From Bacteroidales bacterium (lineage in GTDB: Bacteria > Bacteroidota > Bacteroidia > Bacteroidales > UBA4181): 58,389 bases of DNA. Within the stretch, counting starts at the first letter, position 1. Every line of letters starts with the position of its first letter. Below, piece by piece: positions 24,195-44,179 of the stretch. The DNA is taken from the NCBI GenBank assembly GCA_031551935.1, contig JAVBMZ010000076.1, positions 1-58,389 on the forward strand, given 5' to 3'. The notes beneath the pieces are model-generated. The model made no database searches and had not been told where the DNA came from. It saw only the letters and a list, made by a program, of their open reading frames with translations. The translations under genes and the position numbers were made by a program.

Positions 24195-24266
24195 TAAGCA
24201 ATTTAATATAAACCAATTATCGACCCAGACTTATACAAAAAACTTGTTGTTTGGGAAAGTAGTATT

Positions 24267-25310: not shown

Positions 25311-25403
25311 ACGGCATAAAAAGGCACAAATATACCCAGAATTGATGATATGAAACTTACTTTAGGTGCGAAAATAAAAGATATGCGCAACCATAAGCTA
25401 TAT

Positions 25404-26180: not shown

Positions 26181-26237
26181 TTTAGTATTTATTTAGAAAT
26201 TTCCTATATGATTAATCATTGTTTATAGCATCAGTTA

Positions 26238-27383: not shown

Positions 27384-27420
27384 ATTACTCTACTTTATGT
27401 TCACTTAAAAATGATATGGC

Positions 27421-28539
27421 TTATTTTTTAGTCAATTGACTATTTACAAAATCTACAATTATCTTCATTTGTTCTGTCCATGACAATTTATAAAGTATCG
27501 AATTTCTTATTTCCTCTGGTCTAACATTATTGGATATGCGAAAGTCGACGATTTTTTTTATGTCTATAGGAGATTCATCAGCTGGGGCTTTCATGATATA
27601 AGACATATTCTCAAAATCATCATCAATTTCAGAATATATGAATGGAATTCCCCGAGCTGCATATTCCCTGTTTTTCAACGTTTTTATTTTGGTAATATGG
27701 CTACGATGTCGTGCTAGGCTCGCGATTCCCATATCAGCATTTTCAAATTGTTCATCTAAGGCATCGCCTGATTTTTTACCGTGAAAAATAACATATTGTT
27801 CTAAAGAGCATTCTGTCACTAGTTGTTTCAATTTTTCTGTAGCACCTTCACCAACAATATGAAAAAAAACTTTAATGGATTGCGAGTGTTCATAATATTT
27901 TGCCAATCCTGTAATAACACGATCAAAACCATGCCAAAAATGAATTTCTGCAACTCCTAAAAGGTTTATTTGTTTTGAAATATCATTAACATGTGTTTTC
28001 ATTTTGATTTGTCCGAAATCAATACCATTAGAAATTTTCAGTGTTGGAATTCCAAAAATTACATCATCATCGGAAAAAGTAACAATCCGTGATGTATATT
28101 TTGCCAATCGGTTACGAAAATGCCTATCAAAAAATATTCTACGTTTCTTTTTTCTATATTCATGATCATAAGGATATGTGGGTATCTCTAGTAAAACAAT
28201 AACTCCCTGTCTTTTAAGTTTCCTAAAAAAATGAATTAAAAATGGATTAGCGTTATGATCGTGACGAACATATACAAATTTTATATCTTTATTGACAACG
28301 TGTTGAAATAACCGGGCATATCGAATCCGTTTTCGTAATTTCCCCAAAAAACCACTTCCGTAATCCTCTAACACTTTATTGTCAATCATCCGTTTGCGAT
28401 GCTCGTCCGCATCAACATTCATATAGCATAGTTCCACATCTACACCACAAGTTTTTAACGCGTCAATTTGGTAAAATATTTTCTTGCTAATACCATTATG
28501 TTGACCAAATCCATGAAAAACTAAAAACAACGCTTTCAT
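27421..28539 (-). CDS. Glycosyltransferase (GT-B fold, GT4-like)
   Basis: 372 aa. Two Rossmann-like halves. C-terminal HIVGEG...IFHGKK...NREYAARGIPFIYSE resembles the GT4 donor-binding region. The 4-nt ATGA overlap with wzx indicates operon membership. Confidence 0.7.
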   Translation of the reverse strand: MKALFLVFHGFGQHNGISKKIFYQIDALKTCGVDVELCYMNVDADEHRKRMIDNKVLEDYGSGFLGKLRKRIRYARLFQHVVNKDIKFVYVRHDHNANPFLIHFFRKLKRQGVIVLLEIPTYPYDHEYRKKKRRIFFDRHFRNRLAKYTSRIVTFSDDDVIFGIPTLKISNGIDFGQIKMKTHVNDISKQINLLGVAEIHFWHGFDRVITGLAKYYEHSQSIKVFFHIVGEGATEKLKQLVTECSLEQYVIFHGKKSGDALDEQFENADMGIASLARHRSHITKIKTLKNREYAARGIPFIYSEIDDDFENMSYIMKAPADESPIDIKKIVDFRISNNVRPEEIRNSILYKLSWTEQMKIIVDFVNSQLTKK

Positions 28540-29990
28540 TTTATTTTTCTTATCAATGAATGGATTATTTTAAAAATGTTATATTCTTTATAAAAGAACT
28601 GCATATAAACAATGGAGGGGATAATAAAGAATATACCTTTGAAAATCAGACTAGACCACATAGTCCAATTAATAGTATATTTATTTATCAAAAACAAAAT
28701 CATAAATAATATACTGCTAAGAATCAAGGGAGATACAAGTTGTCTCCAAAATGGCAACATGTTCAATTTGAACGTAAATCGATACATCAAGACATAACAT
28801 TGTATAAAATTAATTGTAAAAGAAATACAGAGTCCCCAAGCTACGGCTATGGTTGTTTTAAATACAAATATTCCAATTAATATACTTGCTACATTTAAGA
28901 TAGAAGATAACAATCCACTCACAAATAACATCCGTGTATCATTTGCTGCCTGAAATATGGGACCTGATGTTGACAATATTATTTGAATACCAACCGATAA
29001 AGATAATATTTGAAATACAGGAACAGATGCTGTCCATTGCATTCCCAAAATTAATAACATAATTTCTCTAGCTGAAAAAAACAAAAAAATGGACAATGGA
29101 AACCCAATAAATGATAGTAAAGAAATTATTTTTAGATATGAACCAGACAACTTTTTCAAATCATCTTGTAAATCAGAAAAAACCGGATGTAGTACAGGTG
29201 AAATTACATGTGTAATGTTTTGTAATGGCAGCATCATAAATCTATATGATTTTTCGTAATATCCTAAAGATTTCATACTTAAATATTTACCCATTAACAA
29301 TTTATCCAAATTACGACTAAAATAATTAATTATATTAAATAAAAATTGATATGCTGAATACACAAATATGATCTTCACAGAAGATATACCCAAAGTCCAT
29401 CTAATTTTCTGTGGATATTTCCTAAAACCAATGATAAAAATACTCACACTCGATATTATTGGGTTGATAAGCAAGGCATACAGACCTAGGCCTTTTAAAG
29501 CTGCAATAACAGCAATTATTCCACTAACCAATTGTATTGTTAAATTACGTATTGCTAAAAATTTAAATTGTTTATTTTTATAAAACAGGGCATTGGGAAC
29601 AATATTGACAGTTACAAAAAAAAGATTAATAGACAAAATCTTACAAATAGTTCGTAATTGTACATTATCATAATAGGACGCAATAGGCCAAGAAGCAAAG
29701 AAAAAACATATTGTAAGTATTAACCCTATGAAAATCGTAAAACAAAATATATCCGACAAATTGTCTGTTGTCAATTTTTTATTTTGAATAATCGCCGGAG
29801 CAATACCCACGTCGCTGAAAATACTAAAAAAAGAAATAATAACCGTTGCAACAGCCACAACACCAAAATCTTCAGGAACGATCAACCGGCTTAAAATACC
29901 AGTAACAACCAATGAAACAACGATACCTGTATATTTTGAAATGGCTATGTAGGTTATTCCTGATATGAGTTGCTTCTTTGTAGAGTTCAT
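28536..29990 (-). CDS. wzx: Wzx-type polysaccharide flippase (MOP superfamily)
   Basis: 484 aa, polytopic (about 12-14 hydrophobic helices). The N-terminal ISKYTGIVVSLVVTGILSRLIVPEDFGVVAV is typical of polysaccharide biosynthesis/flippase proteins. Confidence 0.85.
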   Translation of the reverse strand: MNSTKKQLISGITYIAISKYTGIVVSLVVTGILSRLIVPEDFGVVAVATVIISFFSIFSDVGIAPAIIQNKKLTTDNLSDIFCFTIFIGLILTICFFFASWPIASYYDNVQLRTICKILSINLFFVTVNIVPNALFYKNKQFKFLAIRNLTIQLVSGIIAVIAALKGLGLYALLINPIISSVSIFIIGFRKYPQKIRWTLGISSVKIIFVYSAYQFLFNIINYFSRNLDKLLMGKYLSMKSLGYYEKSYRFMMLPLQNITHVISPVLHPVFSDLQDDLKKLSGSYLKIISLLSFIGFPLSIFLFFSAREIMLLILGMQWTASVPVFQILSLSVGIQIILSTSGPIFQAANDTRMLFVSGLLSSILNVASILIGIFVFKTTIAVAWGLCISFTINFIQCYVLMYRFTFKLNMLPFWRQLVSPLILSSILFMILFLINKYTINWTMWSSLIFKGIFFIIPSIVYMQFFYKEYNIFKIIHSLIRKIK

Positions 29991-30940
29991 TATTTCTTTT
30001 TAAAAAGAGATTTAATATCGATAAAAGTGGGAAAAAGCAGCACCAATAAGTTTTTACGAGAAATATATTTTCGTAGACGAACTATTTGTTTAAAAATATA
30101 TAATCGTTCATGAAAGTTCAAAACGTGTGAATTATATATTGCAGGGTTTAGAATATATCTAACTAATCTATCAACAATAGTCTTCACCTGTTGATCAGCA
30201 TCCTGAACATATGCTAATAATTCATTTACTACAGTAAGATAACCTTTAATATTTTTATAACTATAACTCTGGGTCATGATAGAATCTTCCCTGAATCTTC
30301 TTTTAAAAAAAGCTCTAGGAACAAAACCAATTCTTTGAGCCTTAATGTATAATATGGCTGTAAATAATTCATCCTCATGGATAATACCAGGATAAAAATA
30401 CAACTGTAACTGTTGTAAAAAATCTCGTTTAATTAAATTCAACCACACAGAAGCAAGATAAAATTTTTTTTTCAACATGATGTCCAGAAGATCTATACCT
30501 GTATAGATCTTGTTATCGATATATTCCGTCCGTTGATAATTAAAATTCAGCAATAAATTTGCCTTTTCACTAAAAGCAGTTGCATCAAAAAAAACAAAAT
30601 CCAAATTATTGGTGTGACATACTTCATAACAACACATTAATGCATCATGATCCAGCAAATCATCACTATCCATAAAATATATATATTCTCCATTAGACTT
30701 AGTTAAACCTACATTTCTGGCTTCAGATTGGCCTTTATTTTGCTGAGTATGAACAAATATCCGATCATCCAACTCAGCTACACTCTCAACCACACGTAAA
30801 GAATCATCAGTCGAACCATCATCAATAACAATAATTTCAATATCCCTAATTGTCTGATTACAGATACTGAGAAGAGCATCTTTTACATATTTTTCTGTAT
30901 TATAAACGGGTATAATAATACTTATTTTCGGACTATTCAT
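29990..30940 (-). CDS. Glycosyltransferase family 2
   Basis: 316 aa. [14 protein letters not shown]...[10 protein letters not shown]...FMDSDD (DxD). Confidence 0.9.
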
Positions 30941-31574
30941 CTATTTTTTTCACTTTAATCCATTCTTTTTTGTCAAAATCATAACGTTTGATTACTTTAG
31001 CAGGATTACCAACAGCGACACTATATGAGGGAATATTCTTGGTCACAACACTTCCAGCTCCAACCTGAACTCTTTTACCAATATGAACACCAGCCACAAC
31101 TACAGTATTAGCACCAATGTGAGATTCGTCTTCAATAACTACTTCTTTCTTATCTAACGCTTGTTCATTCGAATCTCTCTCACCATCACTATATCCATGA
31201 TTGAATCCTGAAATAAAGACATGTTGTCCCAGTCCAACCCTTTTTCCTAATGTAACAGGTCCGATGAGCACCGATCCGATACCAACTCGCGCCTCATCTC
31301 CGATAATCACATCTCCCGCTCCATTATTGATGATCGTGAAATCTTCAATGGTGGCATATTTTCCTACCACAAATCTATTCCAAGGAAATATATCAATACG
31401 CGATCTTCGAGAACGAATGACAGCACCTTTCCCTTTTTGATATACAAAAGGATTGACAAACCATTTTATCCACCAACGTGGTTTTGGGTTTCTCGCCGGA
31501 GTTATCAAATAAATTATCCATTTTTTTAATCGATCACTTTGTTTTATTTTTGTTTTTACACTGCCTAAATTCAT
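30933..31574 (-). CDS. Hexapeptide-repeat (LbH) acyl/acetyltransferase
   Basis: 213 aa. Left-handed beta-helix repeats [31 protein letters not shown] and [43 protein letters not shown]. Confidence 0.85.
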
Positions 31575-31752
31575 TTTAGTTCTTTGATTTTCTATAATTT
31601 ACATTAGTATTTAAACAATAGATTTTAACATTTACTCCATTATTTAACACATAAATTTGAATTATACATAACTATCATTTGTTTTTGCTAATTACGTCTA
31701 CCACAATGTAATTTGATTTGATTTGATTTAATTTATCTTATGAATAAAAACA

Positions 31753-32946
31753 TTAATTTTTTGTACGTCTTGCTCTTTCCCATTTTACATCCTGATTGTT
31801 GCAGATATACCGAAAAAATCCACTATATACGGCCAAATTCATAATGAAAAAATAATAGGGCACAAACAATATCTTCAGTTTAATTTGTTGGTTTTCCAAA
31901 AACCAACCTACCAATGCCATGATATAAAAACAAAGTTGCCCCCAAAATACAAGAGAGAAAAAAGTACAAGTAAACATTCCTACATGTAAAGCCAACACAA
32001 AATTACTAATGAGTAATAACAACAAGCATAACGGAGCCAATGTCCATCTCAACACTCGATGAGATATATATTGAAAAGAAAGTACTCCATATTTGAAAAT
32101 GTTTAATAGAGGAAGCAATCTAACAATGGATTGAATACCACCGGCAGTAATACGGATCTTTCGTTTTAGTTCTTCTTTTACATTCTCTGATGACATTTCA
32201 CATGCATACACATTTGGATCATATTGAGTCACACGTCCATGCATTGCTATCCTGAGTGAAATAATAAAATCATCTAAAATAGTATCTTTCTCCACTTCCG
32301 AAAAGTATTCACGACGAATAGCGAATAATTCTCCGGCAGCACCTACCACCGAATAAAGCCTGGCGTCATACTTTTTCAGAAAAGACTCATATTTCCAATA
32401 CAAACCTTCCCCTGCACTTGCTGCCATATCTTTATCCTTCTGGAAAATTCTTTTTTCTCCTGATACACATCCAACACCAGGATTAGCAAAAAGATCAACA
32501 ATACGTTGAATCGATTCTTTGCCCAACATCGTATTAGCATCGGAAAAAACAACAATTGGGGTATCGATCAACTTCATTCCCCTGTTCATTGCCGCAATTT
32601 TCCCTGCGCGTTCCGGTTGGTGATAAACTGTCACTTGTGGATATTGTTTCAATAATTCCGGTGTTCCATCATTAGAACCATCAGTTACCCATACCATTTT
32701 TAATTTGTTCATGGGATATTCTAATTCTTGGGAATTTTGTATCTTAGCAAATACATAGTCCTTCTCGTTGTAAGCGGTAACAAATAATGTAACTTCAGGC
32801 AATTCGGATGCAACAAATATGATTGGTTTCCCTTTAACCAATTCTTTAACCTTCACCAAAAGCCAAAGAATCACGACATATCCCACATATGTATATCCGA
32901 CGATAAAAACAGAAAGCCAAAAAATAACAGTAAACAAACAATCCAT
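31753..32946 (-). CDS. Membrane-embedded family-2 glycosyltransferase, synthase-like (QxxRW-type)
   Basis: N-terminal TM helix, VTLFVTAYNEKDYV, FSDANT, GAAGELFAIRR, ISHRVLRW, then C-terminal TM helices. I prefer the ATG at 32946 (2 nt after the upstream stop) to the track start at 32973. Confidence 0.8.
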   Translation of the reverse strand: MDCLFTVIFWLSVFIVGYTYVGYVVILWLLVKVKELVKGKPIIFVASELPEVTLFVTAYNEKDYVFAKIQNSQELEYPMNKLKMVWVTDGSNDGTPELLKQYPQVTVYHQPERAGKIAAMNRGMKLIDTPIVVFSDANTMLGKESIQRIVDLFANPGVGCVSGEKRIFQKDKDMAASAGEGLYWKYESFLKKYDARLYSVVGAAGELFAIRREYFSEVEKDTILDDFIISLRIAMHGRVTQYDPNVYACEMSSENVKEELKRKIRITAGGIQSIVRLLPLLNIFKYGVLSFQYISHRVLRWTLAPLCLLLLLISNFVLALHVGMFTCTFFSLVFWGQLCFYIMALVGWFLENQQIKLKILFVPYYFFIMNLAVYSGFFRYICNNQDVKWERARRTKN

Positions 32947-32948
32947 AA

Positions 32949-33602
32949 TCAAGGATGAAAAAATAAAACACAATATAAGTAAGCAAACATCTCATACACC
33001 ACTTCTCTCGCTCCCTCACTGGTATGCCACCAAGCGTTATGATCATATAAATTATCAGTGAAAGAAATAACACCAACATTCCATTCTGGTTTTAGGGCTT
33101 TTCGATATAATAAACCCGATCGTCTTCCATGTGTACCACTACAAATAATATTCAAATTTCCACCCATATAACCTTTTCCCTTCAGTTTGTTCTTAACGGC
33201 CAGCGCTGTTGTATAAGTACGCTCTTTATCTGTAGCTTTACTCGGTGCACTTAGTATATGTAATGAGTCTATCCCTTTAGATTTAAGAACTGCCGCATTA
33301 TAATCTGCATAATTATCATAGTTGGAACACATATTGCCTTTTATTAAAGGCAAACCTGCACACACAATCAATGGCGTATCCTTAAACTGACGAACAATAG
33401 TATCCAACACTGAATCCGGGACATAACCTTCAATCACTAATATCTGGGTATTAATAGGTTTGTTTTGTGCTAAAAAATCATGTATTGTATTTGCCCATAT
33501 CCATATCAATATGGTAATACCGAAACATACCATAAGCCACCCCACAACAGTCAGCCGCCTATGCTCACTAATCTTTGTTAACTGAAGTTCCATTAAAGGC
33601 AT
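32949..33602 (-). CDS. DUF218/YdcF/SanA-like membrane-anchored protein
   Basis: 217 aa. N-terminal TM helix (VVGWLMVCFGITILIWIW). ILVIEGYVPDS and NIICSGTHGRRSGLLYRKAL resemble the conserved blocks of DUF218 proteins. Confidence 0.5.
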   Translation of the reverse strand: MPLMELQLTKISEHRRLTVVGWLMVCFGITILIWIWANTIHDFLAQNKPINTQILVIEGYVPDSVLDTIVRQFKDTPLIVCAGLPLIKGNMCSNYDNYADYNAAVLKSKGIDSLHILSAPSKATDKERTYTTALAVKNKLKGKGYMGGNLNIICSGTHGRRSGLLYRKALKPEWNVGVISFTDNLYDHNAWWHTSEGAREVVYEMFAYLYCVLFFHP

Positions 33603-33639
33603 TTTTTTGATAAGTATACGTAGTTTGATCAGACATGTT

Positions 33640-35970
33640 TCACTGAATCTTTAATTGCGAATAAACTTTTTTGTAAATATTTAATACATTATGAGCTGTT
33701 ATATCCCATGAGAAATTTCTACATCGTATCAAGCCCAGAGCGACCAACCGGTCACCCTCCTGCGGGTATTTTTCGAGGAATAACATTTGACGTGCAATAT
33801 CTTTATAATCATAAGGAGAAGCATATAATACAGCATCCCCACCTATTTCGGGCATAGATGAAATATTTGAGGTGATTACGGGAGTTCCGCAAGCCATAGA
33901 CTCTAAAACAGGGATACCAAATCCTTCTCGTATGGATGGATATAGAAACATATCGGCTAAGGAATAAAATGCTGGCATATCCGCACTATTTATATATCCT
34001 AACAAAATAATTTTGTCTCTTAGATGAGATAAGCCTGCATCGACAATCTGCATTTCACAAGTATGTTTGTCATTATGAAGCATCACCAACATTTTTTTTA
34101 CGTCTGATTTTTTCCAATATTCAGCATAGGCCCTGAGGGTATTAGTAACATTTTTTCGTGGATCAGAATTACCAATAAAAGCAATATAATGTTCTGGCAA
34201 TTGATATTTTTGACGTATATTCATTTTAACCTGTAGATCTGTTATCGGTACAAAACGTTCACTAACTCCATTATACACCGTAGTAATCATTTCTGGGCGA
34301 ATATGCAATAAATTGACAATATTTTCTTTTTCTGTGTTGGAAACAGTAAATATATGCATACTTTTTGAGACAATCTTAGGTATCAAAAAATGACGATAAT
34401 AATGACCTATTTTTTGATACCATGTTTTATTTCTGGAGGTATTGGATAAGTCCTCAAGACTAATTGTATCATGTAAAGTCAGTATAAAAGGAATACGAGA
34501 TCGAAAAGGTGCAGTATTAGATGTACAATGTAAAAAATCTACTTTCATCGCCTTAGCCACCTTGGGAAGGCTAATTTGCTCCCAAACGGGATATAATTTA
34601 TTATTGATTTCACATATGGTAAAATTAGCAGTTTCCTTCAAACATTTATTTTCTCCAGGAGCCACGAAAATAACATATTCATTAGTTTGATCTATCTTTT
34701 GTAAACCTTGAATTAACTCCAACGTAACAACATCCATCCCGAATTTTTGTTTTCTAAACAACCTCTGTGCATCAATCCCAATATGCATAACATTTTTGGG
34801 TATAATATTATTAGTAACCACGAAATGCTCCGTAGCGTGAAACTTCTTAGTTGCTCCCCTTATCTTGAATAAAGACAAAATCATCAGCACGAATCCTTTG
34901 GGTAAATACCACAAAGATTTAAACAATTGTTTGTTATACATTTTCTTGGGAATGCTAACCAATAAACTAAAACAAACAAATACAACTATCATTAACCATA
35001 TGGTGGAATACCTACTAGGAAGAAAAATTACAGACAACAAGGAAAACAACAGAACTGTAGATAATAGAAATATTCTCGGCAAAAGAAAGTGTTGTAACAC
35101 TTTATCAAAAAAATCAAAATTTCCTCGAAAAAGTTGTATGAAACCTTCTTTAACATTGCTTCTTGCCTGCATTATTTGATTGGCAATCCAACGAGCACGC
35201 TGGGTAACAAATGAGTCCGCCTGTTGCGTTTTTTCATCTAATACTATTAAGTCATCAATATAAATTACAGGACATCCCTTTTTTAATAATTTCATTTCCA
35301 ACTCCTTGTCTTCTCCTGAAGACGAGATATCCAACATTTGTTCTTTATACAATTGATAATCAAAAGCCATCGCAGAACCAATCAGTGCTGAAGACAACCC
35401 TAATGCTGCATGTCCGCGCCTAAACAACTGATTATTGATCTCTTCACTTGCTGCGTCTAATACAGCTAAAGATGTGTTGGTATTCTTAGCTGTACGATGC
35501 GTCTGAATAACTTGTATCCCCGTTTCAAAAGCATCATTAAGCCGTTGCAAATAATCTGTGTTTTGTATTAGGTTATCTGAGTCAAGAATCAATGCGACAT
35601 CATAACAACTGGGCAATTGAGACATGATGGTATTTAATGCCAAAGCTTTTGTACGATTTGCGTCAGAAAATTCTATCACCTTAATTGGCTTGGCTTTCAA
35701 TCGACGAAGAACGTCTTCGGCTAAACTATCTGCAATAATAATAATATCGAATTTAGGATAGTTTTGTAACAATACATTGTTAGCTAAATCTTCTATCACC
35801 ATGTCTGCTTTATATGCAGGCACAAGTATGGCAAAATTCCTATAATTATTTGATTTCGGATAGGTAGGATTTTTGTAAAATAATCCTGCAACCGCATATA
35901 CAACGATATATATAGCACAAAAGATGTAATATCCGGTAACTAAGAAAAAGAGTACTTTTAAAACTAACAT
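33640..35970 (-). CDS. Bifunctional glycosyltransferase: N-terminal membrane GT2 (QxxRW) fused to C-terminal GT4
   Basis: 776 aa. GT2 part: AILVPAYKAD, LDSDN, GSAMAF, EDKEL, QRARW, followed by TM helices. GT4 part: TLHD..., EGFGIPVLESMACGTPVITSNISSMPEIGGDA (EX7E region). Confidence 0.85.
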   Translation of the reverse strand: MLVLKVLFFLVTGYYIFCAIYIVVYAVAGLFYKNPTYPKSNNYRNFAILVPAYKADMVIEDLANNVLLQNYPKFDIIIIADSLAEDVLRRLKAKPIKVIEFSDANRTKALALNTIMSQLPSCYDVALILDSDNLIQNTDYLQRLNDAFETGIQVIQTHRTAKNTNTSLAVLDAASEEINNQLFRRGHAALGLSSALIGSAMAFDYQLYKEQMLDISSSGEDKELEMKLLKKGCPVIYIDDLIVLDEKTQQADSFVTQRARWIANQIMQARSNVKEGFIQLFRGNFDFFDKVLQHFLLPRIFLLSTVLLFSLLSVIFLPSRYSTIWLMIVVFVCFSLLVSIPKKMYNKQLFKSLWYLPKGFVLMILSLFKIRGATKKFHATEHFVVTNNIIPKNVMHIGIDAQRLFRKQKFGMDVVTLELIQGLQKIDQTNEYVIFVAPGENKCLKETANFTICEINNKLYPVWEQISLPKVAKAMKVDFLHCTSNTAPFRSRIPFILTLHDTISLEDLSNTSRNKTWYQKIGHYYRHFLIPKIVSKSMHIFTVSNTEKENIVNLLHIRPEMITTVYNGVSERFVPITDLQVKMNIRQKYQLPEHYIAFIGNSDPRKNVTNTLRAYAEYWKKSDVKKMLVMLHNDKHTCEMQIVDAGLSHLRDKIILLGYINSADMPAFYSLADMFLYPSIREGFGIPVLESMACGTPVITSNISSMPEIGGDAVLYASPYDYKDIARQMLFLEKYPQEGDRLVALGLIRCRNFSWDITAHNVLNIYKKVYSQLKIQ

Positions 35971-35974
35971 ATGT

Positions 35975-36898
35975 TTATGCTAAATGTCCATAATCACAAA
36001 CTTCTGAACGGCACATATTTTTTATATTCCAAAACCATGCACGTAACACTGTTTTGGCATGATTAAATTGACCATGTATTCCAAATATCAATATGTTCTT
36101 AGGCATAGCTAAAAACATTTGGTACATCACAGCAAATATTTTTTGCATCCCAGAGGTATTACAACGGATATATAATACCCTGTTTCGATTAAGGTAATAA
36201 GTTTGTAACGGACTACTTTTCCCTGTAGATAATGATTCCTTATGAAGAATAAATGCATCGGGAACATACATAATCTTGTATCCGACATTTTTGATACGTG
36301 TACTCCAATCCAATTCCTCATAATATAAAAAATAGTGTTCATTCATAAGTCCAGCCTTCTTAATTGCTTCACGACTAACCATCATGGCTGCCCCATGAGC
36401 AAACGCACTGTCTTTTTGCACGTTATACTGTCCTCTATCCTGTTCACCATAACCAATACAACGATTGCGAAACGTATACTTGGATAAATCAGTATATCCC
36501 GCAAATTGGATGACATTAGGATCTGTATAAAATTTAATTTTAGGACAAACAACCCCAATGGACATATCCTCCTGTAATACAGACAATAAACGCTCTATAT
36601 TACCTAAAGGAATAATAGTATCATTGTTCAATAAATAAATATATTCGCCTCTTGCCTTTTTAATAGCCACATTATTTCCTCCCGCAAAACCCGTATTGTA
36701 TCTATTTTTAATAAATATAATTTCAGGAAAGCGTTCTTTTATGATTTCCGGATGATCATTTGGCGAGGCATTATCCACCACAATCACTTCTAAATTAGAA
36801 TACCCACAAGCATAAAGCGACTCTAACATATCGCAAGTTGCCTGAGATTGATTGAAGTTGACAGTAACAATAGAAACTAATGGTCGATTATGGTTCAT
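35975..36898 (-). CDS. Glycosyltransferase family 2
   Basis: 307 aa. VSIVTVNFNQSQ...VVDNASPND...LLNNDT. Confidence 0.9.
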   Translation of the reverse strand: MNHNRPLVSIVTVNFNQSQATCDMLESLYACGYSNLEVIVVDNASPNDHPEIIKERFPEIIFIKNRYNTGFAGGNNVAIKKARGEYIYLLNNDTIIPLGNIERLLSVLQEDMSIGVVCPKIKFYTDPNVIQFAGYTDLSKYTFRNRCIGYGEQDRGQYNVQKDSAFAHGAAMMVSREAIKKAGLMNEHYFLYYEELDWSTRIKNVGYKIMYVPDAFILHKESLSTGKSSPLQTYYLNRNRVLYIRCNTSGMQKIFAVMYQMFLAMPKNILIFGIHGQFNHAKTVLRAWFWNIKNMCRSEVCDYGHLA

Positions 36899-38324
36899 TT
36901 GAGGATGTTAACTCTTTATCAATACGTTGTGCACTAAATATTACTGCAGTAAAGAAAAAAAATAGCATGGCTGATGGATGTTGAAAAAGAATAGAGCCTC
37001 CATAATGCGCAATACTCATACCAGCTATTCCAGCAATCATAGCAATTAAAACTGTTCGTAGCCAATCATTTTTTATTTCAAACCAAACTAAATAAGTTCC
37101 TTTTAATAATATATATATTAGTATGGAGATAAACAAGCACACGCCAACAATTCCCTGTTCACCCCATATGAGCACAAATCCACTATCCGGCGGAGTTTCG
37201 CCTAAAAAAGTACCTGGAACTCCCGGATACATAGAACCGATACCTTCTCCAAAAGGACGATCAGCTAAATAAGCTTTAAACAATTGTTGATTAGACTTTC
37301 GAACTACATAAGATGCATCTTCTTCAGGTTGAAAAGCACTCCGCATACGTCTTATGTTGTAGTTATCATGCCCAATGTATGTAAACATCATAAAATATAT
37401 AAATGCTCCGCCACATAACAATCCAATGAGCAACAATTTAATATTCTTAACTAAAAACAGGTAAATCACACCTCCTACTATTAATACAAACATAGCTCCT
37501 CTTGTGCCACTAATAAACATCCCATATACCCCGGTTAAACACATCAATAAATAAAATAGACGTTTCATGGGTTGTTTTTCTCCCAGAAAAAGTATTGCAC
37601 CACAGAGACCTGCACAAGCCTGACTTGCACCAAATTGTCCTGCATCACTTAAAAAAGAAAATACCCTTAACTGACCGAATAATAAATGAGTGTTTCTCAT
37701 AGAGCCAGCAAGAAGAATTCTCTCAGTTGTATCAAGTCTAATATTCAATTGAATAAATCCTTTCAATGTCATTAGTATAGATAAGATTCCCCAGCAAATA
37801 AGAAATATATTGATTTGCTTTTTATGAAGCAACAAACAAAATAAAGGAACAGAAAATATCATATATAAAAAAGGCCTGACACCAATCAACCAACTTGTAA
37901 AACCTGGACTCTGAGGATTAAATAGTGTACTAACAAGATATAATGCCCATATTATAAAAACGATAATCGGTGCATCGCTCATGTTTTTCCATTCTACTTT
38001 TTCCGAAAAGCTTTTCAAAAAAATGATTGTATAGGTGTATATGAGAAGTATATCTACAATAAACCCCACGGGGAATGCTCCTTTAACAAAATAGCGGTCT
38101 AATGCAAACAGGAAAAAGCAATAAACAAATAGTATGTATAATGATATAATAGGTTGACGATAAGTAATAACCAAAAAAAGTATTCCCCCTGATAATAATA
38201 AAAATATCAATCCTGCATATATCCCTATAGTGCTTATTACAAATGCAAGTAATACAAGTGCAAACAGCCCACCACCCATCCACAGCCACTTTGGAAATTG
38301 TGAAATAGAGGAATGTGTTTTCAT
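36888..38324 (-). CDS. wzy: O-antigen polymerase/ligase-like polytopic membrane protein (Wzy-type)
   Basis: 478 aa, at least 10 hydrophobic helices. The central FISGTRGAMFVLIVGG block resembles the Wzy_C/O-antigen ligase domain. It sits between the PCP and GT genes. Confidence 0.7.
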   Translation of the reverse strand: MKTHSSISQFPKWLWMGGGLFALVLLAFVISTIGIYAGLIFLLLSGGILFLVITYRQPIISLYILFVYCFFLFALDRYFVKGAFPVGFIVDILLIYTYTIIFLKSFSEKVEWKNMSDAPIIVFIIWALYLVSTLFNPQSPGFTSWLIGVRPFLYMIFSVPLFCLLLHKKQINIFLICWGILSILMTLKGFIQLNIRLDTTERILLAGSMRNTHLLFGQLRVFSFLSDAGQFGASQACAGLCGAILFLGEKQPMKRLFYLLMCLTGVYGMFISGTRGAMFVLIVGGVIYLFLVKNIKLLLIGLLCGGAFIYFMMFTYIGHDNYNIRRMRSAFQPEEDASYVVRKSNQQLFKAYLADRPFGEGIGSMYPGVPGTFLGETPPDSGFVLIWGEQGIVGVCLFISILIYILLKGTYLVWFEIKNDWLRTVLIAMIAGIAGMSIAHYGGSILFQHPSAMLFFFFTAVIFSAQRIDKELTSSNEP

Positions 38325-38338
38325 ATCATAATTTTGTT

Positions 38339-40399
38339 TTAGGAAATTTTTCCGAGCACGTCTTCTACTACGTCTTTGGTCACATCATTCAAAATTATGT
38401 AAGGTGTTATTCCAGAAATCTTAATAAATCCATCTATTGCACTTTGATCGGCTTTAGTCCATTCCCTATTAGCCTCACAAATTAAAAATGCAACATTAAA
38501 TTGTCTAATCAATGTAATGGGATAATCATTCAGGATCAAGGATGGCAATTCTAAAATAAGCACATCTGTTTCATTCAATCGTTCAACTGGCACTAAATCT
38601 TCAGCTTTAGATTGATAAAAAGCACTATCTATCTTATAGTTGACTACTGACCAACTACCAGAATCAAGATAAGGGACAACAACCAAACACTTTTTCCCTT
38701 TCTGAAGTAATCGTTCGCATAATAGATTACTAATAGTTGTTTTTCCTTCGGAAGGCCGAGTACTAATAATCAATACTCGTTGTTGACTTTGTTGATTAGA
38801 AATATATATATTCCTGAGAATCGTATCACTTAAACCATCGCTGATTTGTTCCGAGTTTTTATATCCAGTTAATTCTTTGATGTTGGGAAATATACCACCT
38901 ATTTTTAAACCTGTAGCTTCTTCTGCTCTCTGAGGAGTTTTGATGTCAGCGTTGAAATATGCCAACAAAAGGCAAATCGCAGCCGGTATCAGGAACCCCA
39001 TCATCCCCCCCATAACAATATACAATTTTCGATAACTTGTTTTAGACATTAAAGGGTAATTGGGTTTATCTATTATTTGAATCGTAGAAAGAGACTGTTG
39101 ATCTTGTTGACGCATTTTACTTTGGTTCAAGTTTTGTAAAGCTGCTAAATAAGCCTTTTCATTAATGTCTATCTCTCTTTGAATACGCTTTAGCGTATCG
39201 CCTAATGGTAAAAACTGGCTATATTGTCCTATGGTTTCATTCCTTCGACTTTCTAATGCTTTTAATCGAGCTTTACTTTCTTCGTATGAAATCATTTTCG
39301 TAAAATATTCGGATACAACCTTATCACTAGCAACACCCCCAGAAGCTGCACCGGACATTTCTGCCATATCTCGATTCAATTCTTCCTTAATCTGGTCCAC
39401 CTGCAAACGCAAATTAGCAATTCTCTCTGGAGAGTTATTATTTAATTCGGCCATGCTCAGTTGATTGGATAATCGGCTTAATTGTTCCCGCTTGTCCAAA
39501 ATTTCCCTGTTTTTTAAGGTTTGTGCCTGAGAACCTAACTGGCTTTCTATATTTTTGAGAGCCGCTTCAGTAGCATAAATCACCTCTTGTTCCGCATGGA
39601 TTTGATTTAAAATATTTTCCCGTTGAGCTATCACAATATCGGTTTGGGCATCGTAATTAACCAAATTATTTGCTTTTTTAAACCATAGATCTTTTTCTTC
39701 TGATTTTTTTAATTGTTGACGCGCCAATTCTAGTTGTTTCTCAAAGTATGCAACCACTGAATCTGTTTGACTCTCATTGATTTTCCTAAAATTACGAATA
39801 CTCGCATCAATGAGAATCTCCAGTGTTTTTTGACAGATCCCCTGATCTTCAGAAGGGTAAATTAATTTAACAATATCACTATTCATGACTCTTGTAACTG
39901 TCACTTTGGATAATGCCGGAATGCTGTAGTATGCAGCTGGATAATTAATTTGCGCAATAAGATAAGGATGTGAATCTGAAATAGAGTCAAGCCGTCTATA
40001 AGTTTCTTCTGGGTTTTTTGTTATTAATTGTTGAATGTCTGTTGGAATCTGCTGTTTTATATATTCAAGGTGTTCTATAGTTATTAACTTCGGATCAGCT
40101 TTTTCAAGAGTTAAATGCAACGATAACAACCTCAATCCAACCTCCTTAAGAGTTTGTCTACTTTTAACAATGTTCAATAAATTATCAAAAGCGTAACGCG
40201 ATGTATTGTCTGGTCTGTTTTGAATGACACTTTCCATAGAATAGCCGGAAGCAATCCCCGTATAAACAGTAGCTTCAGATTCATATTCTTTGGGCATATT
40301 TCTTGTAAAAAAAATCACCAATATTACAGTGATTATGGGACACACAATAAGAATAAACGCATGTTTCAACAATGTATTGAATATATTCCGAATATCCAT
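38339..40399 (-). CDS. Polysaccharide co-polymerase (Wzz/GumC-like) with a C-terminal degenerate BY-kinase-like P-loop domain
   Basis: 686 aa. TM1 (FILIVCPIITVILVIFF) plus PKEYESEATVY (Wzz motif), a long coiled-coil periplasmic region, TM2 (LYIVMGGMMGFLIPAAICLLLAYF), then VLIISTRPSEGKTTISNLL (Walker A-like) and DVLILELPS. There is no C-terminal Tyr cluster. Confidence 0.8.
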   Translation of the reverse strand: MDIRNIFNTLLKHAFILIVCPIITVILVIFFTRNMPKEYESEATVYTGIASGYSMESVIQNRPDNTSRYAFDNLLNIVKSRQTLKEVGLRLLSLHLTLEKADPKLITIEHLEYIKQQIPTDIQQLITKNPEETYRRLDSISDSHPYLIAQINYPAAYYSIPALSKVTVTRVMNSDIVKLIYPSEDQGICQKTLEILIDASIRNFRKINESQTDSVVAYFEKQLELARQQLKKSEEKDLWFKKANNLVNYDAQTDIVIAQRENILNQIHAEQEVIYATEAALKNIESQLGSQAQTLKNREILDKREQLSRLSNQLSMAELNNNSPERIANLRLQVDQIKEELNRDMAEMSGAASGGVASDKVVSEYFTKMISYEESKARLKALESRRNETIGQYSQFLPLGDTLKRIQREIDINEKAYLAALQNLNQSKMRQQDQQSLSTIQIIDKPNYPLMSKTSYRKLYIVMGGMMGFLIPAAICLLLAYFNADIKTPQRAEEATGLKIGGIFPNIKELTGYKNSEQISDGLSDTILRNIYISNQQSQQRVLIISTRPSEGKTTISNLLCERLLQKGKKCLVVVPYLDSGSWSVVNYKIDSAFYQSKAEDLVPVERLNETDVLILELPSLILNDYPITLIRQFNVAFLICEANREWTKADQSAIDGFIKISGITPYIILNDVTKDVVEDVLGKIS

Positions 40400-40405
40400 T
40401 ATAAC

Positions 40406-41170
40406 CTATTTAATAATTTTAATACCAACCAAAGCTTCCATCAAACGTAAAGCTTTACTATAATTATTTTTTTCGATTTCATATGCATTCTGAGTTTTTA
40501 TAAAAGTTTCAGCAGATTGGGTATAATCTTTCAGGGATATTTTATTCCCAGCATAATCCATCTTGGCTTGATCAAACGTCATACTGGCTGACGATAATAG
40601 TTCTATTTGTAGATCTAATGTTTTCTGTTGTGTAAGCAAGTCATAATAAGCAGTAATTACCAATTGTCTTATATTATTTTCTATTATTTCCTTTTGAGCT
40701 CTGGCTTGCTCAATATTAATTTTTGCCTCCTGCCGAGGTAACTTACGATTCAAAACTTCGGAAATAGGCATTCTCATATTAAGACCTACCCCATACCTAA
40801 CCGAGGGTCTCTCCTGATCAGAATAATCAATCAAGACCTGTTCAGTAGAAAAATAAAAATCGCTACCATAACGCGCATCTCCCTGTAAATAAATCCATTT
40901 CATCCAATCTTTATTCAATTGCTTCAATTCGTATTGACTCAATAATATGGTATTATCAGCTATTCTCATTGCTGGAGAATGAATCAATGCCGAATCAATC
41001 AATGCCCCTAATGAAGGCAACATTTTAGAAAAATCGCTGTCTTCATTTGTTGCATCTCCTGATATTGATTGAGCATATATATCCCCTATTAACATTATGG
41101 AAACAAAGAATATGGAAAGTACAATTCGCATGGTGGTATGACAATGATCTTTACTCATTATATTATACAT
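40406..41170 (-). CDS. Half-size TolC-like outer-membrane protein (a single OEP repeat)
   Basis: 254 aa (likely start 41131, MRIVLSIFFVSIMLIGDIYAQS signal). ALIDSALIHSPAMRIADNTILLSQYELKQ ... YGVGLNMRMPI ... IRQLVITAYYDLLTQQKTLDL ... YSKALRLMEALVG follows the helix-strand-strand-helix pattern of one TolC/OEP repeat. Confidence 0.55.
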   Translation of the reverse strand: MYNIMSKDHCHTTMRIVLSIFFVSIMLIGDIYAQSISGDATNEDSDFSKMLPSLGALIDSALIHSPAMRIADNTILLSQYELKQLNKDWMKWIYLQGDARYGSDFYFSTEQVLIDYSDQERPSVRYGVGLNMRMPISEVLNRKLPRQEAKINIEQARAQKEIIENNIRQLVITAYYDLLTQQKTLDLQIELLSSASMTFDQAKMDYAGNKISLKDYTQSAETFIKTQNAYEIEKNNYSKALRLMEALVGIKIIK

Positions 41171-42374
41171 CTGATTTTTGAAACATTACTGGAATCGTTC
41201 TCAATAGAATAAATATGTCTCCAAAAAAAGAATTTTTATGAGCGTACATATTATCTAAAATAAATCTTTCTTCTTCTGACATAAAACCACCACGTCCACG
41301 AAGTTCCACTTGCCAAAGGCCAGTAAGCCCTGCAGCTGCACGAAATCTTCGCGACCACCGTGATTTTGTAATAGCATGCGCCTCATACACAGGTAATGGT
41401 CGATTGCCAACAATAGACATGTCGCCTTTCAATACATTAAACAATTGGGGTAACTCATCAATACTGGTATTACGAATAAACCGTCCCACCTTAGTGATAC
41501 GAGGATCATTTTGTATTTTCAGAAATGCCTTCTGTGCATTTTGCCGTTTCAGGGCCAAGCGTTCACAAATACGTTCACCATCATAGTAATATGCAGGTGA
41601 ACATAACTCGCCTTCAGACAACTTAGCACAGACAGAACAAACTAGTTCTACAGCATCATCCTGAGTCGCATATTGGTTGAGGTGTGCTACTTCTTTTAAC
41701 CGTCTATCAGCATCAGGGTACATGGACCTGAATTTGTAAAAATCAAAGGTTTTGTAATTAGCACCTACGCGTTTCGATTTATAAATCACTGCACCTCTTG
41801 ATTCAAGCCGAATAGCTATAGCCGTAAAAATCAGAATCGGCGACAACACCAAAAGTGCTATAAATGCTACAGAGATATCAAAAGCCCGTTTTATGAATGA
41901 TGTCTTATAGGGACGCATAAATTCTTCATCATTATCCTTTGCCTGATATTGATGTATAGATCTAGCATCTTGAAGATAAGCAATACGGTCATATATCAAT
42001 CGGTCGTCGATCGGTTTATTCAAGCATCCTTTAATACCTATCGATAAAGCCCTTTGTTTCAAATAATTATTTCGTTGCGTAGCAATTAGAATAAAAACAA
42101 GCCCCGTATTTAGGCCTGTTTTTTTCATTTCCTGAAACAATGCCATGCCATTCAACCCAGGTAGATTGGTTTCGCATACAATAGCATTAATATCACAACT
42201 GCGCTGAAGTCTATCCTGCTGAATAAATGCCTTAAAAGAACCATTGGTCAACCATTTGAACGCCATTAAACCATTAGTCTCATGATAAACCTCAAATAAA
42301 GAATTTGCTTTAAGACAGTCGAGCACTGTAGGATCATCGCCTATATATAATATTTTGAATGGAGTTTGGTCCAT
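41163..42374 (-). CDS. Receiver-domain-fused initiating phosphoglycosyl transferase (bacterial sugar transferase, WbaP/EpsL-type C-terminal domain)
   Basis: 403 aa. Residues ~5-135 are CheY-like (ILYIGDDP...AIVCETNLPGLNG...LNKP). Then a TM helix (ISVAFIALLVLSPILIFTAIAI), YKSKRVG, FYKFRSM, DPRITKVGRFIRNTSIDELPQLFNVLKGDMSIVGNRP. Confidence 0.85.
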   Translation of the reverse strand: MDQTPFKILYIGDDPTVLDCLKANSLFEVYHETNGLMAFKWLTNGSFKAFIQQDRLQRSCDINAIVCETNLPGLNGMALFQEMKKTGLNTGLVFILIATQRNNYLKQRALSIGIKGCLNKPIDDRLIYDRIAYLQDARSIHQYQAKDNDEEFMRPYKTSFIKRAFDISVAFIALLVLSPILIFTAIAIRLESRGAVIYKSKRVGANYKTFDFYKFRSMYPDADRRLKEVAHLNQYATQDDAVELVCSVCAKLSEGELCSPAYYYDGERICERLALKRQNAQKAFLKIQNDPRITKVGRFIRNTSIDELPQLFNVLKGDMSIVGNRPLPVYEAHAITKSRWSRRFRAAAGLTGLWQVELRGRGGFMSEEERFILDNMYAHKNSFFGDIFILLRTIPVMFQKSDV

Positions 42375-42378
42375 AATT

Positions 42379-42786
42379 TTATATCCCTATACGACTCAAA
42401 AAACGTTCGCGAACTTCCAAACGACGTTTGATACGAGCTATTACTTCGCTGGGATTAAATGGCTTAACAACATAATCCTCTGCTCCCAATTCAAAGCATC
42501 TGATTTTATCTTTACTCCATTCCCGCCCCGAAAGAATCATAATTGGAATGTCATCAAAAAAACCGCTACTTTTGATTCTTTCCAAAAATTCGAATCCGTT
42601 TAATTCAGGCATTACTAAATCGCATATAATCAGATCTGGAAAATTACCTGCCTCCAAATAATCGAGCCCCTCCTGTCCATTAGACAAAGAAATTACATCA
42701 AACTCTTGTTTAAGAGTATTTTCAATAATAAATCGAATACTTTTCTCGTCGTCTATAACTAAAATTTTCTTTTTGGCCATAACCAA
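42379..42786 (-). CDS. Stand-alone CheY-like response regulator (receiver only)
   Basis: 135 aa. ILVIDDE, PDLIICDLVMPELNG (acceptor Asp), IMILSG, VVKPF. All canonical receiver residues are present and there is no output domain. Confidence 0.9.
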   Translation of the reverse strand: MVMAKKKILVIDDEKSIRFIIENTLKQEFDVISLSNGQEGLDYLEAGNFPDLIICDLVMPELNGFEFLERIKSSGFFDDIPIMILSGREWSKDKIRCFELGAEDYVVKPFNPSEVIARIKRRLEVRERFLSRIGI

Positions 42787-42817
42787 ACTAGCCTTTGATC
42801 GTAATATTTTTTATAAA

Positions 42818-42825
42818 CAAATATA
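42818..42825 (-). promoter_or_regulatory. Candidate -7 box (TATATTTG on the minus strand) for the EPS operon
   Basis: The + strand caaatata is the reverse complement of TAnnTTTG, ~32 nt upstream of the regulator ATG (42786). Confidence 0.3.
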
Positions 42826-43192
42826 ATGCCTCAATACTTAATATCATATTATAATATACGAAAGAAATGCTAAAAAGTTTTCTTTTTCTCTAACACTAAT
42901 TTTTGTAATTAGGGTGTTTTCAAACGACACTATGTTATTAGATAGAAAAGTATGTTTGTTCTGATATTATTTTTGGAACAACAAAGGTACATACTTCTCT
43001 TAAATATGTGTCAATACTTCTTTAAAAACACTTGATTTTATATTTGTATTCTTGACCATTTTTTATATGTTTGCTACGAAAGTGAAGGAAGGTTTATTGG
43101 TAAATAATCAAGTAGGGATTATGCAACTTATCCTTGTTCTGAGATACACAGTACTTTCCAAACACTATCATAAATATTCAACATCAACATAT

Positions 43193-44179
43193 ATGAAAAT
43201 CCTTATAACCGGAGCAAGTGGATTTATTGGTAGTTTTATCGTGAACGAAGGCCTAAATAGAGGTTATGATGTATATGCCGGCATTCGTTGCACTAGTAGT
43301 CTTCAATATTTACCGAAAGATATCAAAACAGTAGAACTTAGCTTTGATAACAAAGATTTGTTGAAATCAGAATTAAGTACTCTTGGTCGGTTTGACTATA
43401 TCATCCATAATGCAGGAGTCACCAAATGCAATCATAAAACGGATTTTGATAAGGTAAATTACGGATATACCCGCAATTTTGTAGAAGCATTAACCGAAAG
43501 CAATGCTGTACCAAAAAAGTTTCTATTTGTCAGCAGTATGGCTGCCTTTGGGCCTGGAGATCCCAAAACATTAGAACCTGTCAAACTTACAGATGTGCCT
43601 AAACCAGACACTCTCTACGGGAAAAGCAAACTCAAAGCTGAAGAATTCATTATGTCACAACTTGGATTTCCTTACATATTTATCAGACCAACAGGAGTTT
43701 ATGGACCAAGGGAAAAGGACTATTTTGTATTTTTGAAGACCATTAATAATCACCTGGAACCAGCTATGGGTACCAAGAAACAGCATCTTACTTTCATTTA
43801 TGTTACCGATTTAGTGAATGTTATGTTTTCAGCATTAGAATCTGAATACTATCAAAAGGCATGGTTCGTTTCCGATGGTAAGGTTTATGATAACCGTGAA
43901 TACGCAAACATCGTAAAAAAACATTTAAACCGAAAAACCCTATATTTACCTGTACCGCTATTTTTGGTTAAAGCTATTTCTTACACTTTAGATTTCATTG
44001 GCGGGTTGTTCGGCATATCTCCTACGCTCAATAAAGATAAATACAAAATTATGCGTGCTACTAATTGGAAATGTGACGTAGAACCTTTACAACAAGAATT
44101 GGGTTTTAAAGCCCTATACGATCTGGATAAAGGGATTGAAGCATGTGTACAATGGTACAAAACAGAACATTGGCTCTAA
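43193..44179 (+). CDS. NAD-dependent epimerase/dehydratase (extended SDR)
   Basis: MKILITGASGFIGSFI (GxxGxxG) at 43193, and YGKSK (YxxxK catalytic motif). The 47 codons upstream in the track ORF look like non-coding leader. Confidence 0.85.
   Translation: MKILITGASGFIGSFIVNEGLNRGYDVYAGIRCTSSLQYLPKDIKTVELSFDNKDLLKSELSTLGRFDYIIHNAGVTKCNHKTDFDKVNYGYTRNFVEALTESNAVPKKFLFVSSMAAFGPGDPKTLEPVKLTDVPKPDTLYGKSKLKAEEFIMSQLGFPYIFIRPTGVYGPREKDYFVFLKTINNHLEPAMGTKKQHLTFIYVTDLVNVMFSALESEYYQKAWFVSDGKVYDNREYANIVKKHLNRKTLYLPVPLFLVKAISYTLDFIGGLFGISPTLNKDKYKIMRATNWKCDVEPLQQELGFKALYDLDKGIEACVQWYKTEHWL

Follow-up and report, generated by a model that had tools for sequence, protein, structure and literature searches.

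The transferase and its family

We analyzed a 58,389-nucleotide stretch of DNA from a Bacteroidales bacterium (contig JAVBMZ010000076.1 of assembly GCA_031551935.1; hereafter, the window), which includes a long co-oriented operon for the synthesis of an exopolysaccharide (EPS). The first gene of the operon encodes a stand-alone response regulator (RR). The second gene encodes a phosphoglycosyl transferase (PGT) that carries, at its N-terminus, a degenerate version of the receiver domain (REC) of response regulators. An earlier reading of this DNA, made without database searches (the sequence-only reading), had pointed out the fusion. The open reading frame (ORF) of the PGT is genuine and runs from an ATG to a TAA. 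The ORF and the main features of its catalytic part are:

41163..42374, minus strand: pseudo-receiver fused to a small monotopic PGT, 403 amino acids (profile, alignment, AlphaFold2, and Foldseek evidence)
41799..41897, minus strand: putative re-entrant membrane helix, residues 160-192, with a Ser178-Pro179 break (helix in the AlphaFold2 model; S178 and P179 conserved; aligns to the WbaP helix)
41454..41459, minus strand: catalytic Asp306-Glu307 dyad in IDELPQ (invariant in 117 of 117 homologs; aligns to the WbaP DE dyad; codons checked)
41397..41411, minus strand: VGNRP motif, with Asn324 where other PGTs have Pro (VGPRP); clade marker

Residues 162-398 match the Pfam family Bac_transf (PF02397) over profile positions 1-178 of 179 (E = 3.6e-58; 196.5 bits against a cut-off of 27). 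In NCBIfam, the C-terminal part of the protein falls among the EPS, WbaP and WcaJ-type polyprenyl glycosylphosphotransferases, and none of the NCBIfam equivalog cut-offs was reached (the top match, TIGR03025, scored 238.8 bits against 295.55). K214, R216, R292, D306, E307, and R325 are invariant across the 117 homologs described below, and the basic residues of the KFRSM, DPRIT, and xRP motifs align, along with the DE dyad, to the motifs of WbaP. An AlphaFold2 model, which was built with a 62-sequence alignment, matched PglC structures in Foldseek with template modeling (TM) scores of 0.79-0.84 and aligned to WbaP over 410 columns. In the model, a long alpha5/linker helix (residues 124-152) precedes the helix at residues 160-192, whose re-entrant topology we infer from homology. 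Pfam found no match to PF13727 in the ORF, which has neither a transmembrane bundle nor a domain whose function is unknown (DUF). These comparisons identify the predicted product as the polyprenyl-phosphate sugar-1-phosphate transferase that carries out the initiating step for a Wzx/Wzy-type EPS operon. Its catalytic domain is of the small monotopic, PglC-like type and has every catalytic residue intact.

The protein shares its catalytic fold, the Ser-Pro re-entrant helix, the KFRSM and DPRIT motifs, and the Asp-Glu dyad with Campylobacter PglC (PDB 8G1N/8E37). It differs from PglC-type PGTs in having Asn for Pro in VGPRP, a four-cysteine (Cys4) insert of about 40 amino acids, and a dead fused receiver that is paired with a free RR. 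The Asn is found in all 117 close homologs, in 149 of 151 sequences from the wider clade (the query and 150 representatives), and in 20 of 21 ORFs at family loci of named genomes; in other phyla, 57 of 60 PGTs have Pro. As judged from these alignments, VGNRP is a subfamily signature, and its departure from the canonical VGPRP does not exclude the protein from the PGTs. It is encoded by the only Bac_transf gene in the genome (89% complete, 3.07 Mb). The same genome also contains two polytopic Glycos_transf_4 genes.

The sequence-only reading knew of no described fusion of this kind, but the architecture is neither rare nor undescribed: it belongs to a large Bacteroidota clade of PGTs. A search of 5.8 billion proteins gave 117 full-length homologs (clusters at 90% identity) that are 53-81% identical to the PGT, and all of them have a REC followed by Bac_transf. 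The close homologs that are named are all labeled Bacteroidales, Bacteroidia, or Bacteroidota. For the wider clade, we took the best 150 of 1.84 billion cluster representatives (50% identity), ranked by their scores against the catalytic domain by itself. Nearly all of these are 360-440 amino acids long with the PGT domain at the C-terminus, so an N-terminal extension is the rule in the VGNRP clade. The architecture is thus shared by at least 117 clusters at 90% identity as well as by the best 150 at 50% identity. In a phylum-wide sample of 200 genomes, about a tenth had full-length-like matches.

Such fusions are also in the literature already: a passage of Schwabe et al. 2025 (PMC12802240) that cites the survey of O'Toole et al. 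2021 notes receiver domains fused to small monotopic PGTs (monoPGTs), and the Imperiali and Allen groups class monoPGT fusions as "bifunctional" (PMC10942596). Full-text literature searches, in which the O'Toole survey was represented by its citation only, found no characterized members of the REC-PGT family, and the REC-PGT/RR module goes unmentioned in a paper on Zunongwangia EPS. What is new here is the conserved upstream RR, along with a set of predicted proteins in which the RR is fused to the catalytic domain and the pseudo-receiver is absent; both emerged from sequence comparison.

A pseudo-receiver and its partner regulator

The features at issue are the N-terminal domain of the PGT, the codon at its former phospho-acceptor site, and the free RR:

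41958..42374, minus strand: pseudo-receiver domain, residues 1-139 (AlphaFold2, Foldseek, and conservation)
42171..42173, minus strand: Glu68 codon, phospho-acceptor column (HMMER, BLASTP, and codon check)
42379..42786, minus strand: stand-alone single-domain RR, 133-135 amino acids (Response_reg at residues 8-120, full profile, E = 4.2e-27)

The sequence-only reading had proposed that the first ~130 residues of the PGT are receiver-like, with Glu at the acceptor site, and our data bear out both points. The Pfam family Response_reg (PF00072) matches only residues 61-131, over profile positions 42-110 (E = 1.8e-8; 34.9 bits against a gathering cut-off of 30.2). The AlphaFold2 model nevertheless shows a complete (beta-alpha)5 fold, with predicted local distance difference test (pLDDT) values of about 88-92 and with E68 at the C-terminal end of beta3. 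(The elements are beta1 6-11, alpha1 15-23, beta2 27-32, alpha2 35-42, an extra loop 43-63, beta3 64-68, alpha3 76-86, beta4 93-98, alpha4 103-111, beta5 116-119, and alpha5 from 124.) Foldseek matched this domain to the receivers of ArcA (TM 0.85, root-mean-square deviation 2.0 Å) and CheY (TM 0.8) and to PorX. With HMMER (residues 1-151), Glu68 (in VCETNLPG) aligned onto the phospho-acceptor Asp of ArcA (D54), RcsC, and PleD. BLASTP aligned the neighboring regulator to the pseudo-receiver at 22% identity over 136 columns (E = 7e-9). Neither alignment puts a genuine Asp in the acceptor column. Because they share only 22% identity, we rejected the idea that the pseudo-receiver is a recent duplicate of the neighboring RR.

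D12, D13, D56, S86, and K108 of the neighboring RR correspond to G12, D13, E68, A98, and K120 of the pseudo-receiver. Three of the five catalytic positions (G12, E68, and A98) are changed, and K120 is kept. Among the 117 close homologs, the acceptor column has Glu in 107, Asp in 5, Asn in 3, and Ser in 2; 115 of them retain G12 and 99 retain K120. The N-terminal alignment is approximate at the divergence of the wider clade, where the acceptor column (n = 151) has E in 50, D in 47, N in 13, A in 7, S in 7, Q in 6, H in 3, and other residues in the remainder, and the Lys column has K in just 26 of 151. At this depth, the decay of the receiver is visible. Surveys of pseudo-receivers found that the commonest changes are Asp to Glu, Thr to Ala, and the loss of the second acidic residue (PMC12632262, PMC4395418). 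The substitutions in this family fit that pattern, and the second acidic residue has become Asn in the family consensus. Given G12, E68, and A98, and the drift across the wider clade, the pseudo-receiver very likely acts independently of phosphorylation, as had been suggested from its Glu. We conclude that the N-terminal domain is a Glu-type, aspartate-less pseudo-receiver, and not a working receiver; from its residues it is predicted to be unable to join His-Asp phosphotransfer.

Within the close family, the best-conserved parts of the pseudo-receiver are beta3 (0.84), the beta3-alpha3 loop, and alpha2; alpha4 and beta5, where receivers usually have their output face, score lowest (0.44-0.45). 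Between alpha2 and beta3 there are about 15 extra residues (residues 43-63; 42186-42248, minus strand; pLDDT 83-88). This region shows a conserved NGLxAxxWLT motif, an invariant F50, and nearly invariant W41 and F47. The extra loop may be a contact surface that is specific to the clade.

Like the pseudo-receivers of plant PRR/TOC1, fungal Rim15p, Chlamydia ChxR, and Myxococcus xanthus FrzS (PMC4395418, PMC12632262), this domain has Glu at the acceptor site, has lost further catalytic residues, and has kept the Lys, and like them it presumably functions independently of phosphorylation. In contrast to those proteins, its output is a membrane enzyme that primes glycan synthesis, not a DNA-binding or kinase domain; it has a dedicated canonical receiver as its partner; and its conserved surface is formed by alpha2, the beta3-alpha3 loop, and the alpha2-beta3 insert.

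The sequence-only reading had used the neighboring RR merely for alignment, but it proves to be a conserved partner, and the likely mechanism hinges on it. D12, D13, D56, S86, and K108, the canonical residues, are all present in the RR, which is presumably phosphorylatable. Its ORF is listed from a TTG at 42786, but the likely start is the ATG at 42780 (MAKKKIL...), which matches the N-termini of its orthologs and of three of the fusion proteins described below (P0271-P0273). Its TAA stop lies 4 nt ahead of the start codon of the PGT, as read from the sequence.

An ortholog of the RR lies immediately upstream of the PGT gene in 22 of 23 family loci. On the long metagenomic contigs of loci L082, L084, and L086, a stand-alone REC of 121-155 amino acids, on the same strand, abuts or overlaps the PGT gene. 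The same arrangement was found in 19 of the 20 named Bacteroidota family loci, with examples from Sediminibacterium, Flavobacterium, Lacinutrix, Bacteroides, Prevotella, Mucilaginibacter, Pedobacter, Pinibacter, and Puia. The PGT ORF at the exception (L009) is short. For comparison, none of 60 PGT loci from other phyla has a stand-alone REC at that position. The pairing of RR and PGT holds with and without the Cys insert. In 17 of the 23 loci, this one among them, the partner has the full canonical set (DD, D, S/T, and K).

In four relatives, the RR is joined directly to the catalytic domain. We searched with the RR and PGT sequences joined and considered the best 120 hits. All of these are 340-435 amino acids long, and none is a triple fusion of RR, pseudo-receiver, and PGT. 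Four proteins of 409-419 amino acids (P0271-P0274) begin with 131-132 residues that are 75-83% identical to the stand-alone RR of this locus along its entire length and keep every catalytic residue. Their last 250 residues are 67-71% identical to the catalytic domain of our PGT, including the Cys4 and VGNRP motifs. They have no pseudo-receiver but a linker of ~34 residues instead. In the contigs, the fusion gene heads its operon and there is no free RR upstream. One of the four (P0271) was found in three independent assemblies (from ENA, JGI, and Logan). In a tree of catalytic domains, three of the four fusions form a well-supported group, and a single origin of all four was not rejected by the approximately unbiased test (p-AU 0.95). 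Their nearest neighbors are close relatives of our PGT that have the pseudo-receiver, so the fused form looks derived, although the tree is unrooted. We consider the fusions to be the strongest available evidence that the free RR acts on this PGT. The fusion operons are very short (L090:7001-9428 and L091:3180-5607): the fusion gene is followed only by a membrane-bound family 2 glycosyltransferase (GT2) of the Glyco_transf_21 type, with an overlap of 8 nt. The PGT and the membrane GT2 may be a minimal conserved unit.

How the regulator may control the transferase

We propose that the phosphorylated RR controls the PGT post-translationally, with the pseudo-receiver as a docking or relay domain. 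A kinase or phosphorelay encoded outside the window would phosphorylate the free RR. The phosphorylated RR would then bind the pseudo-receiver-PGT at the membrane, in the simplest form as a REC:REC heterodimer with additional contacts to the catalytic domain (we infer the contact), and binding would activate or inhibit the enzyme. The use of undecaprenyl phosphate for EPS would thus be switched post-translationally at the first committed step. In this split switch, the pseudo-receiver would be the half that stays fixed, for docking or relay, and its Glu68 probably stabilizes one conformation and senses nothing. We hold our statements about what the protein is with much more confidence than this regulatory model, to which, as a whole, we give an even chance of being right.

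The model has a precedent by analogy. In Myxococcus xanthus, a single-domain RR, EpsW, interacts directly with the PGT EpsZ when phosphorylated and so activates it (Schwabe et al., mBio 2025, PMC12802240). As in our locus, a single-domain RR from an EPS locus is linked to the initiating monotopic PGT of a Wzx/Wzy pathway, and the proposed logic is the same: control at the first step, which consumes undecaprenyl phosphate. However, EpsZ is a large monoPGT with a four-helix transmembrane bundle and a DUF, while our PGT is small and has an N-terminal pseudo-receiver. Nor are the proteins equivalogs, as the RR scored 73.8 bits against 200 for NF041866 and the PGT 165.3 against 800 for NF041877. 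The systems come from different phyla (Bacteroidota and Myxococcota), and the RR-assisted homodimerization that was proposed for EpsZ need not apply here. On these comparisons, the resemblance is analogous and not orthologous.

Several observations weigh against the model. The AlphaFold2 geometry between the domains is uncertain, with a predicted TM score (pTM) of 0.49 and pLDDT below 50 at residues 140-150. Conservation of the pseudo-receiver is lowest (0.44-0.53) in alpha4-beta5-alpha5, the face by which receivers usually dimerize. The weak conservation of alpha4 and beta5 argues against the textbook dimer, and a heterodimer, if there is one, may use another surface. The free RR is degenerate in some Pedobacter and Chitinophagaceae loci (L014, L015, L016, L017, L020, and L021), with DG for DD and with E, S, or V at the acceptor site, so phosphorylation is not a universal input. 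These degenerate RRs still adjoin the PGT gene, which implies that the pairing outlives phosphorylation. As for the source of the phosphoryl group, the sequence-only account listed no kinase in the window, and elsewhere in the genome there are only two free histidine phosphotransfer (Hpt) ORFs (G000:C155:6658-6897 and G000:C41:13235-13453), which may belong to a phosphorelay that feeds the RR. Finally, a possible reading of the fusions is that the RR takes the place of the pseudo-receiver and does not bind it. (At L086, an Hpt-like ORF of 118 amino acids, at 7227-7583, directly precedes the RR.)

In an explanation that needs no partner, Glu68 makes the pseudo-receiver a phosphomimic that is constitutively "on" and by itself keeps the PGT active, and the neighboring RR has a separate role. 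Glu is the commonest natural replacement of the acceptor, and Asp-to-Glu changes activate several regulators (PMC4395418, PMC12632262); in the close family, E68 is found in 107 of 117 homologs and K120 in 99. Across the wider clade, however, the acceptor column is varied and the Lys is mostly lost, which implies that Glu is not required for function, and the equivalent Glu of ChxR is dispensable (PMC4395418). A phosphomimic would also leave both the adjacent RR (22 of 23 loci) and the P0271-P0274 fusions unexplained, and we think this account unlikely. We consider it distinctly unlikely that the pseudo-receiver is a structural or oligomerization module like the DUF of WbaP, which might also bind a small ligand such as a nucleotide, with the adjacency of the RR reflecting shared transcription. 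The N-terminal domain does sit where WbaP has its DUF, and in Foldseek the entire model aligns to WbaP across those 410 columns. The DUF mediates dimerization and inhibition by uridine monophosphate (UMP) (PMC10942596), and many pseudo-receiver structures are dimeric without phosphorylation. But small monoPGTs reportedly function as monomers; a single-domain RR, lacking an output of its own, needs a protein partner through which to act; and in four relatives an RR ortholog is covalently joined to the same catalytic domain.

It would be extremely improbable for the N-terminal domain to be a working receiver after all, phosphorylated at position 68 or at a nearby Asp (D13 or D14). Asp does occur in the column in 5 of the 117 close homologs and in about a third of the representatives, and K120 and one or two acidic residues remain. 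However, Glu is no substrate for His-Asp phosphotransfer, a near-invariant Gly (G12) stands where a Mg2+ ligand is needed, A98 replaces Thr/Ser, and the members with Asp mostly lack the Lys.

If the phosphorylated RR does control the PGT, this would bear on the open question of how cells ration undecaprenyl phosphate, which is scarce and is shared with peptidoglycan synthesis, among their glycan pathways. In the literature we searched, there is one case of an RR acting directly on a priming PGT (EpsW/EpsZ, 2025), and the module described here suggests a second, structurally different solution that is widespread in Bacteroidota. According to recent reviews, the function of bacterial pseudo-receivers is largely unknown, and the RR/PGT module offers a clean system for that question. 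Its carriers include gut Prevotella and Bacteroides and the culturable genera Flavobacterium, Pedobacter, and Sediminibacterium, so the model is genetically testable. Furthermore, the natural variants (the split pair, the RR-enzyme fusion, and inserts with and without Cys) are ready-made domain-deletion experiments.

The cysteine insert and the surrounding operon

The catalytic domain is interrupted by an insert with four cysteines:

41526..41678, minus strand: clade-specific insert, residues 233-283, with a CxxC knuckle, a beta-hairpin (261-264 / 267-270), and a helix (271-283)
41637-41639, 41628-41630, 41601-41603, and 41565-41567, minus strand: codons of C246, C249, C258, and C270

The insert of about 40 amino acids lies in the cytoplasmic loop that links the KFRSM strand to the NDPRIT helix. 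The sequence-only reading had estimated the segment from FRSM to DPRIT at ~70 amino acids, longer than usual, and had suggested a metal or redox site. The segment is indeed 71 amino acids long, as compared to 28-37 in members of the clade that lack the insert, and in WbaP from S. enterica it is about 40 shorter. The spacing is C-x2-C-x8-C-x11-C; the last interval, from C258 to C270, had been miscounted as x12. The cysteines might have proved to be poorly conserved in orthologs, but each of the four is present in 116 of 117 close homologs. Glu271 is invariant. Of the residues outside the insert, 0.59% are Cys; within the segment, 4 of about 70 are.

We counted the cysteines between FRSM and DPR by an alignment-free method, which could score 136 of the representatives:

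Close homologs: 0 Cys, 1 sequence; 1-3 Cys, 0; 4 Cys, 108; 5-6 Cys, 7
Representatives: 0 Cys, 72 sequences; 1-3 Cys, 6; 4 Cys, 53; 5-6 Cys, 5

The dominant spacing is that of our PGT in the close homologs and C-x2-C-x6-C-x11-C in the representatives. By regular expression on the aligned segment, the 151 wider-clade sequences comprise ~60 with a Cys4 insert, 56 with a Cys-free insert of similar length, and 35 with none, and the Cys-free inserts retain a Glu that matches E271. Neither Pfam (E up to 10) nor a sequence search of the PDB matched the Cys insert to a known family. When the insert was modeled alone, Foldseek found nothing significant (lowest E = 2.9); LIM and ADD zinc fingers were among the noise, which is a hint only.

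Among the wider-clade representatives, there was no clear association between Glu at the acceptor site and the presence of the four cysteines: sequences with the Cys4 insert have E in 19 and D in 13, those with a Cys-free insert have E in 24 and D in 20, and those without an insert have E in 7 and D in 14. On a tree of 179 columns, which is poorly resolved (70 of 146 branches open), the insert type and the acceptor residue both change many times (33 and 52 changes, respectively), and at least five changes of insert type are forced. We draw no order of gain or loss from this tree.

The four cysteines are most likely a structural metal site, predicted to bind Zn and to stiffen the hairpin-helix insert of the clade. 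Facultative structural Cys4 zinc sites are familiar from the lid of adenylate kinase and from the C+/C- zinc ribbons of ribosomal proteins. Like those sites, the insert has all four cysteines or none, is a small hairpin module, and has Cys-free equivalents in relatives; unlike them, it has no sequence match and no significant structural match to a known zinc-binding family. The all-or-none pattern and the Cys-free equivalents argue for a metal site that is structural and facultative, not catalytic. The earlier suggestion of a metal or redox site is compatible with the data, in which the pattern shown (four cysteines or none) is that of a metal site.

Alternatively, the insert could be a regulatory redox or iron-sulfur sensor (a thiol switch or a cluster) that gates the nearby active site and provides a second input besides the RR. 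Its cysteines are kept in 116 of 117 close homologs and lie in a cytoplasmic loop beside the catalytic motifs, the rest of the protein has few others (the 0.59% given above), and no known zinc-finger family claims it. However, about half of the clade has a Cys-free insert or none around an otherwise conserved catalytic core, and the repeated changes on the tree include repeated loss, which is typical of structural Zn sites. Furthermore, the C-x2-C with its hairpin resembles zinc knuckles, to which the sub-threshold LIM and ADD matches add their hint. We find a sensor very doubtful. A broader proposal would combine the two halves of the protein: a dead receiver, as the permanent half of a REC:REC heterodimer, and a free phosphorylatable RR that completes it would form a split switch that is new for glycan biosynthesis, with the Cys4 site as a second input (metal or redox), so that EPS initiation would integrate phosphorelay and redox signals at the membrane enzyme itself in many Bacteroidota without a transcriptional step. 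This is a distinctly improbable extension of the model.

Two features flank the RR-PGT pair:

40406..41170, minus strand: OEP/TolC-like gene, 254 amino acids (Pfam OEP, E = 3.9e-21; same neighbor in L082/L083)
42787..43051, minus strand: divergent intergenic region upstream of the RR, 265 nt, shared with an epimerase gene (read from the sequence)

The start of the OEP gene overlaps the stop of the PGT gene by 8 nt, as read from the sequence, which suggests translational coupling. After the PGT, the operon continues with the OEP/TolC-like gene, a Wzz/GNVR/P-loop gene, Wzy_C, GT2, GT2-GT4 (GT4 is glycosyltransferase family 4), DUF218, GT2, a hexapeptide acetyltransferase, and GT2. TAnnTTTG is the -7 promoter consensus of Bacteroidetes. 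Upstream of the RR there are two matches to this sequence, at 42825-42818 and 42989-42982 (minus strand), with the consensus being that of Bacteroides promoters generally. The Wzz/GNVR chain-length protein (38339-40399, minus strand) has a C-terminal P-loop region whose only Pfam match is to nSTAND3 (E = 3e-6), with no match to a family of bacterial tyrosine kinases (BY-kinases). The EPS locus (24000-44000) has 30-36% G+C as compared to 40-46% in its flanks, which is typical of exchangeable polysaccharide loci.

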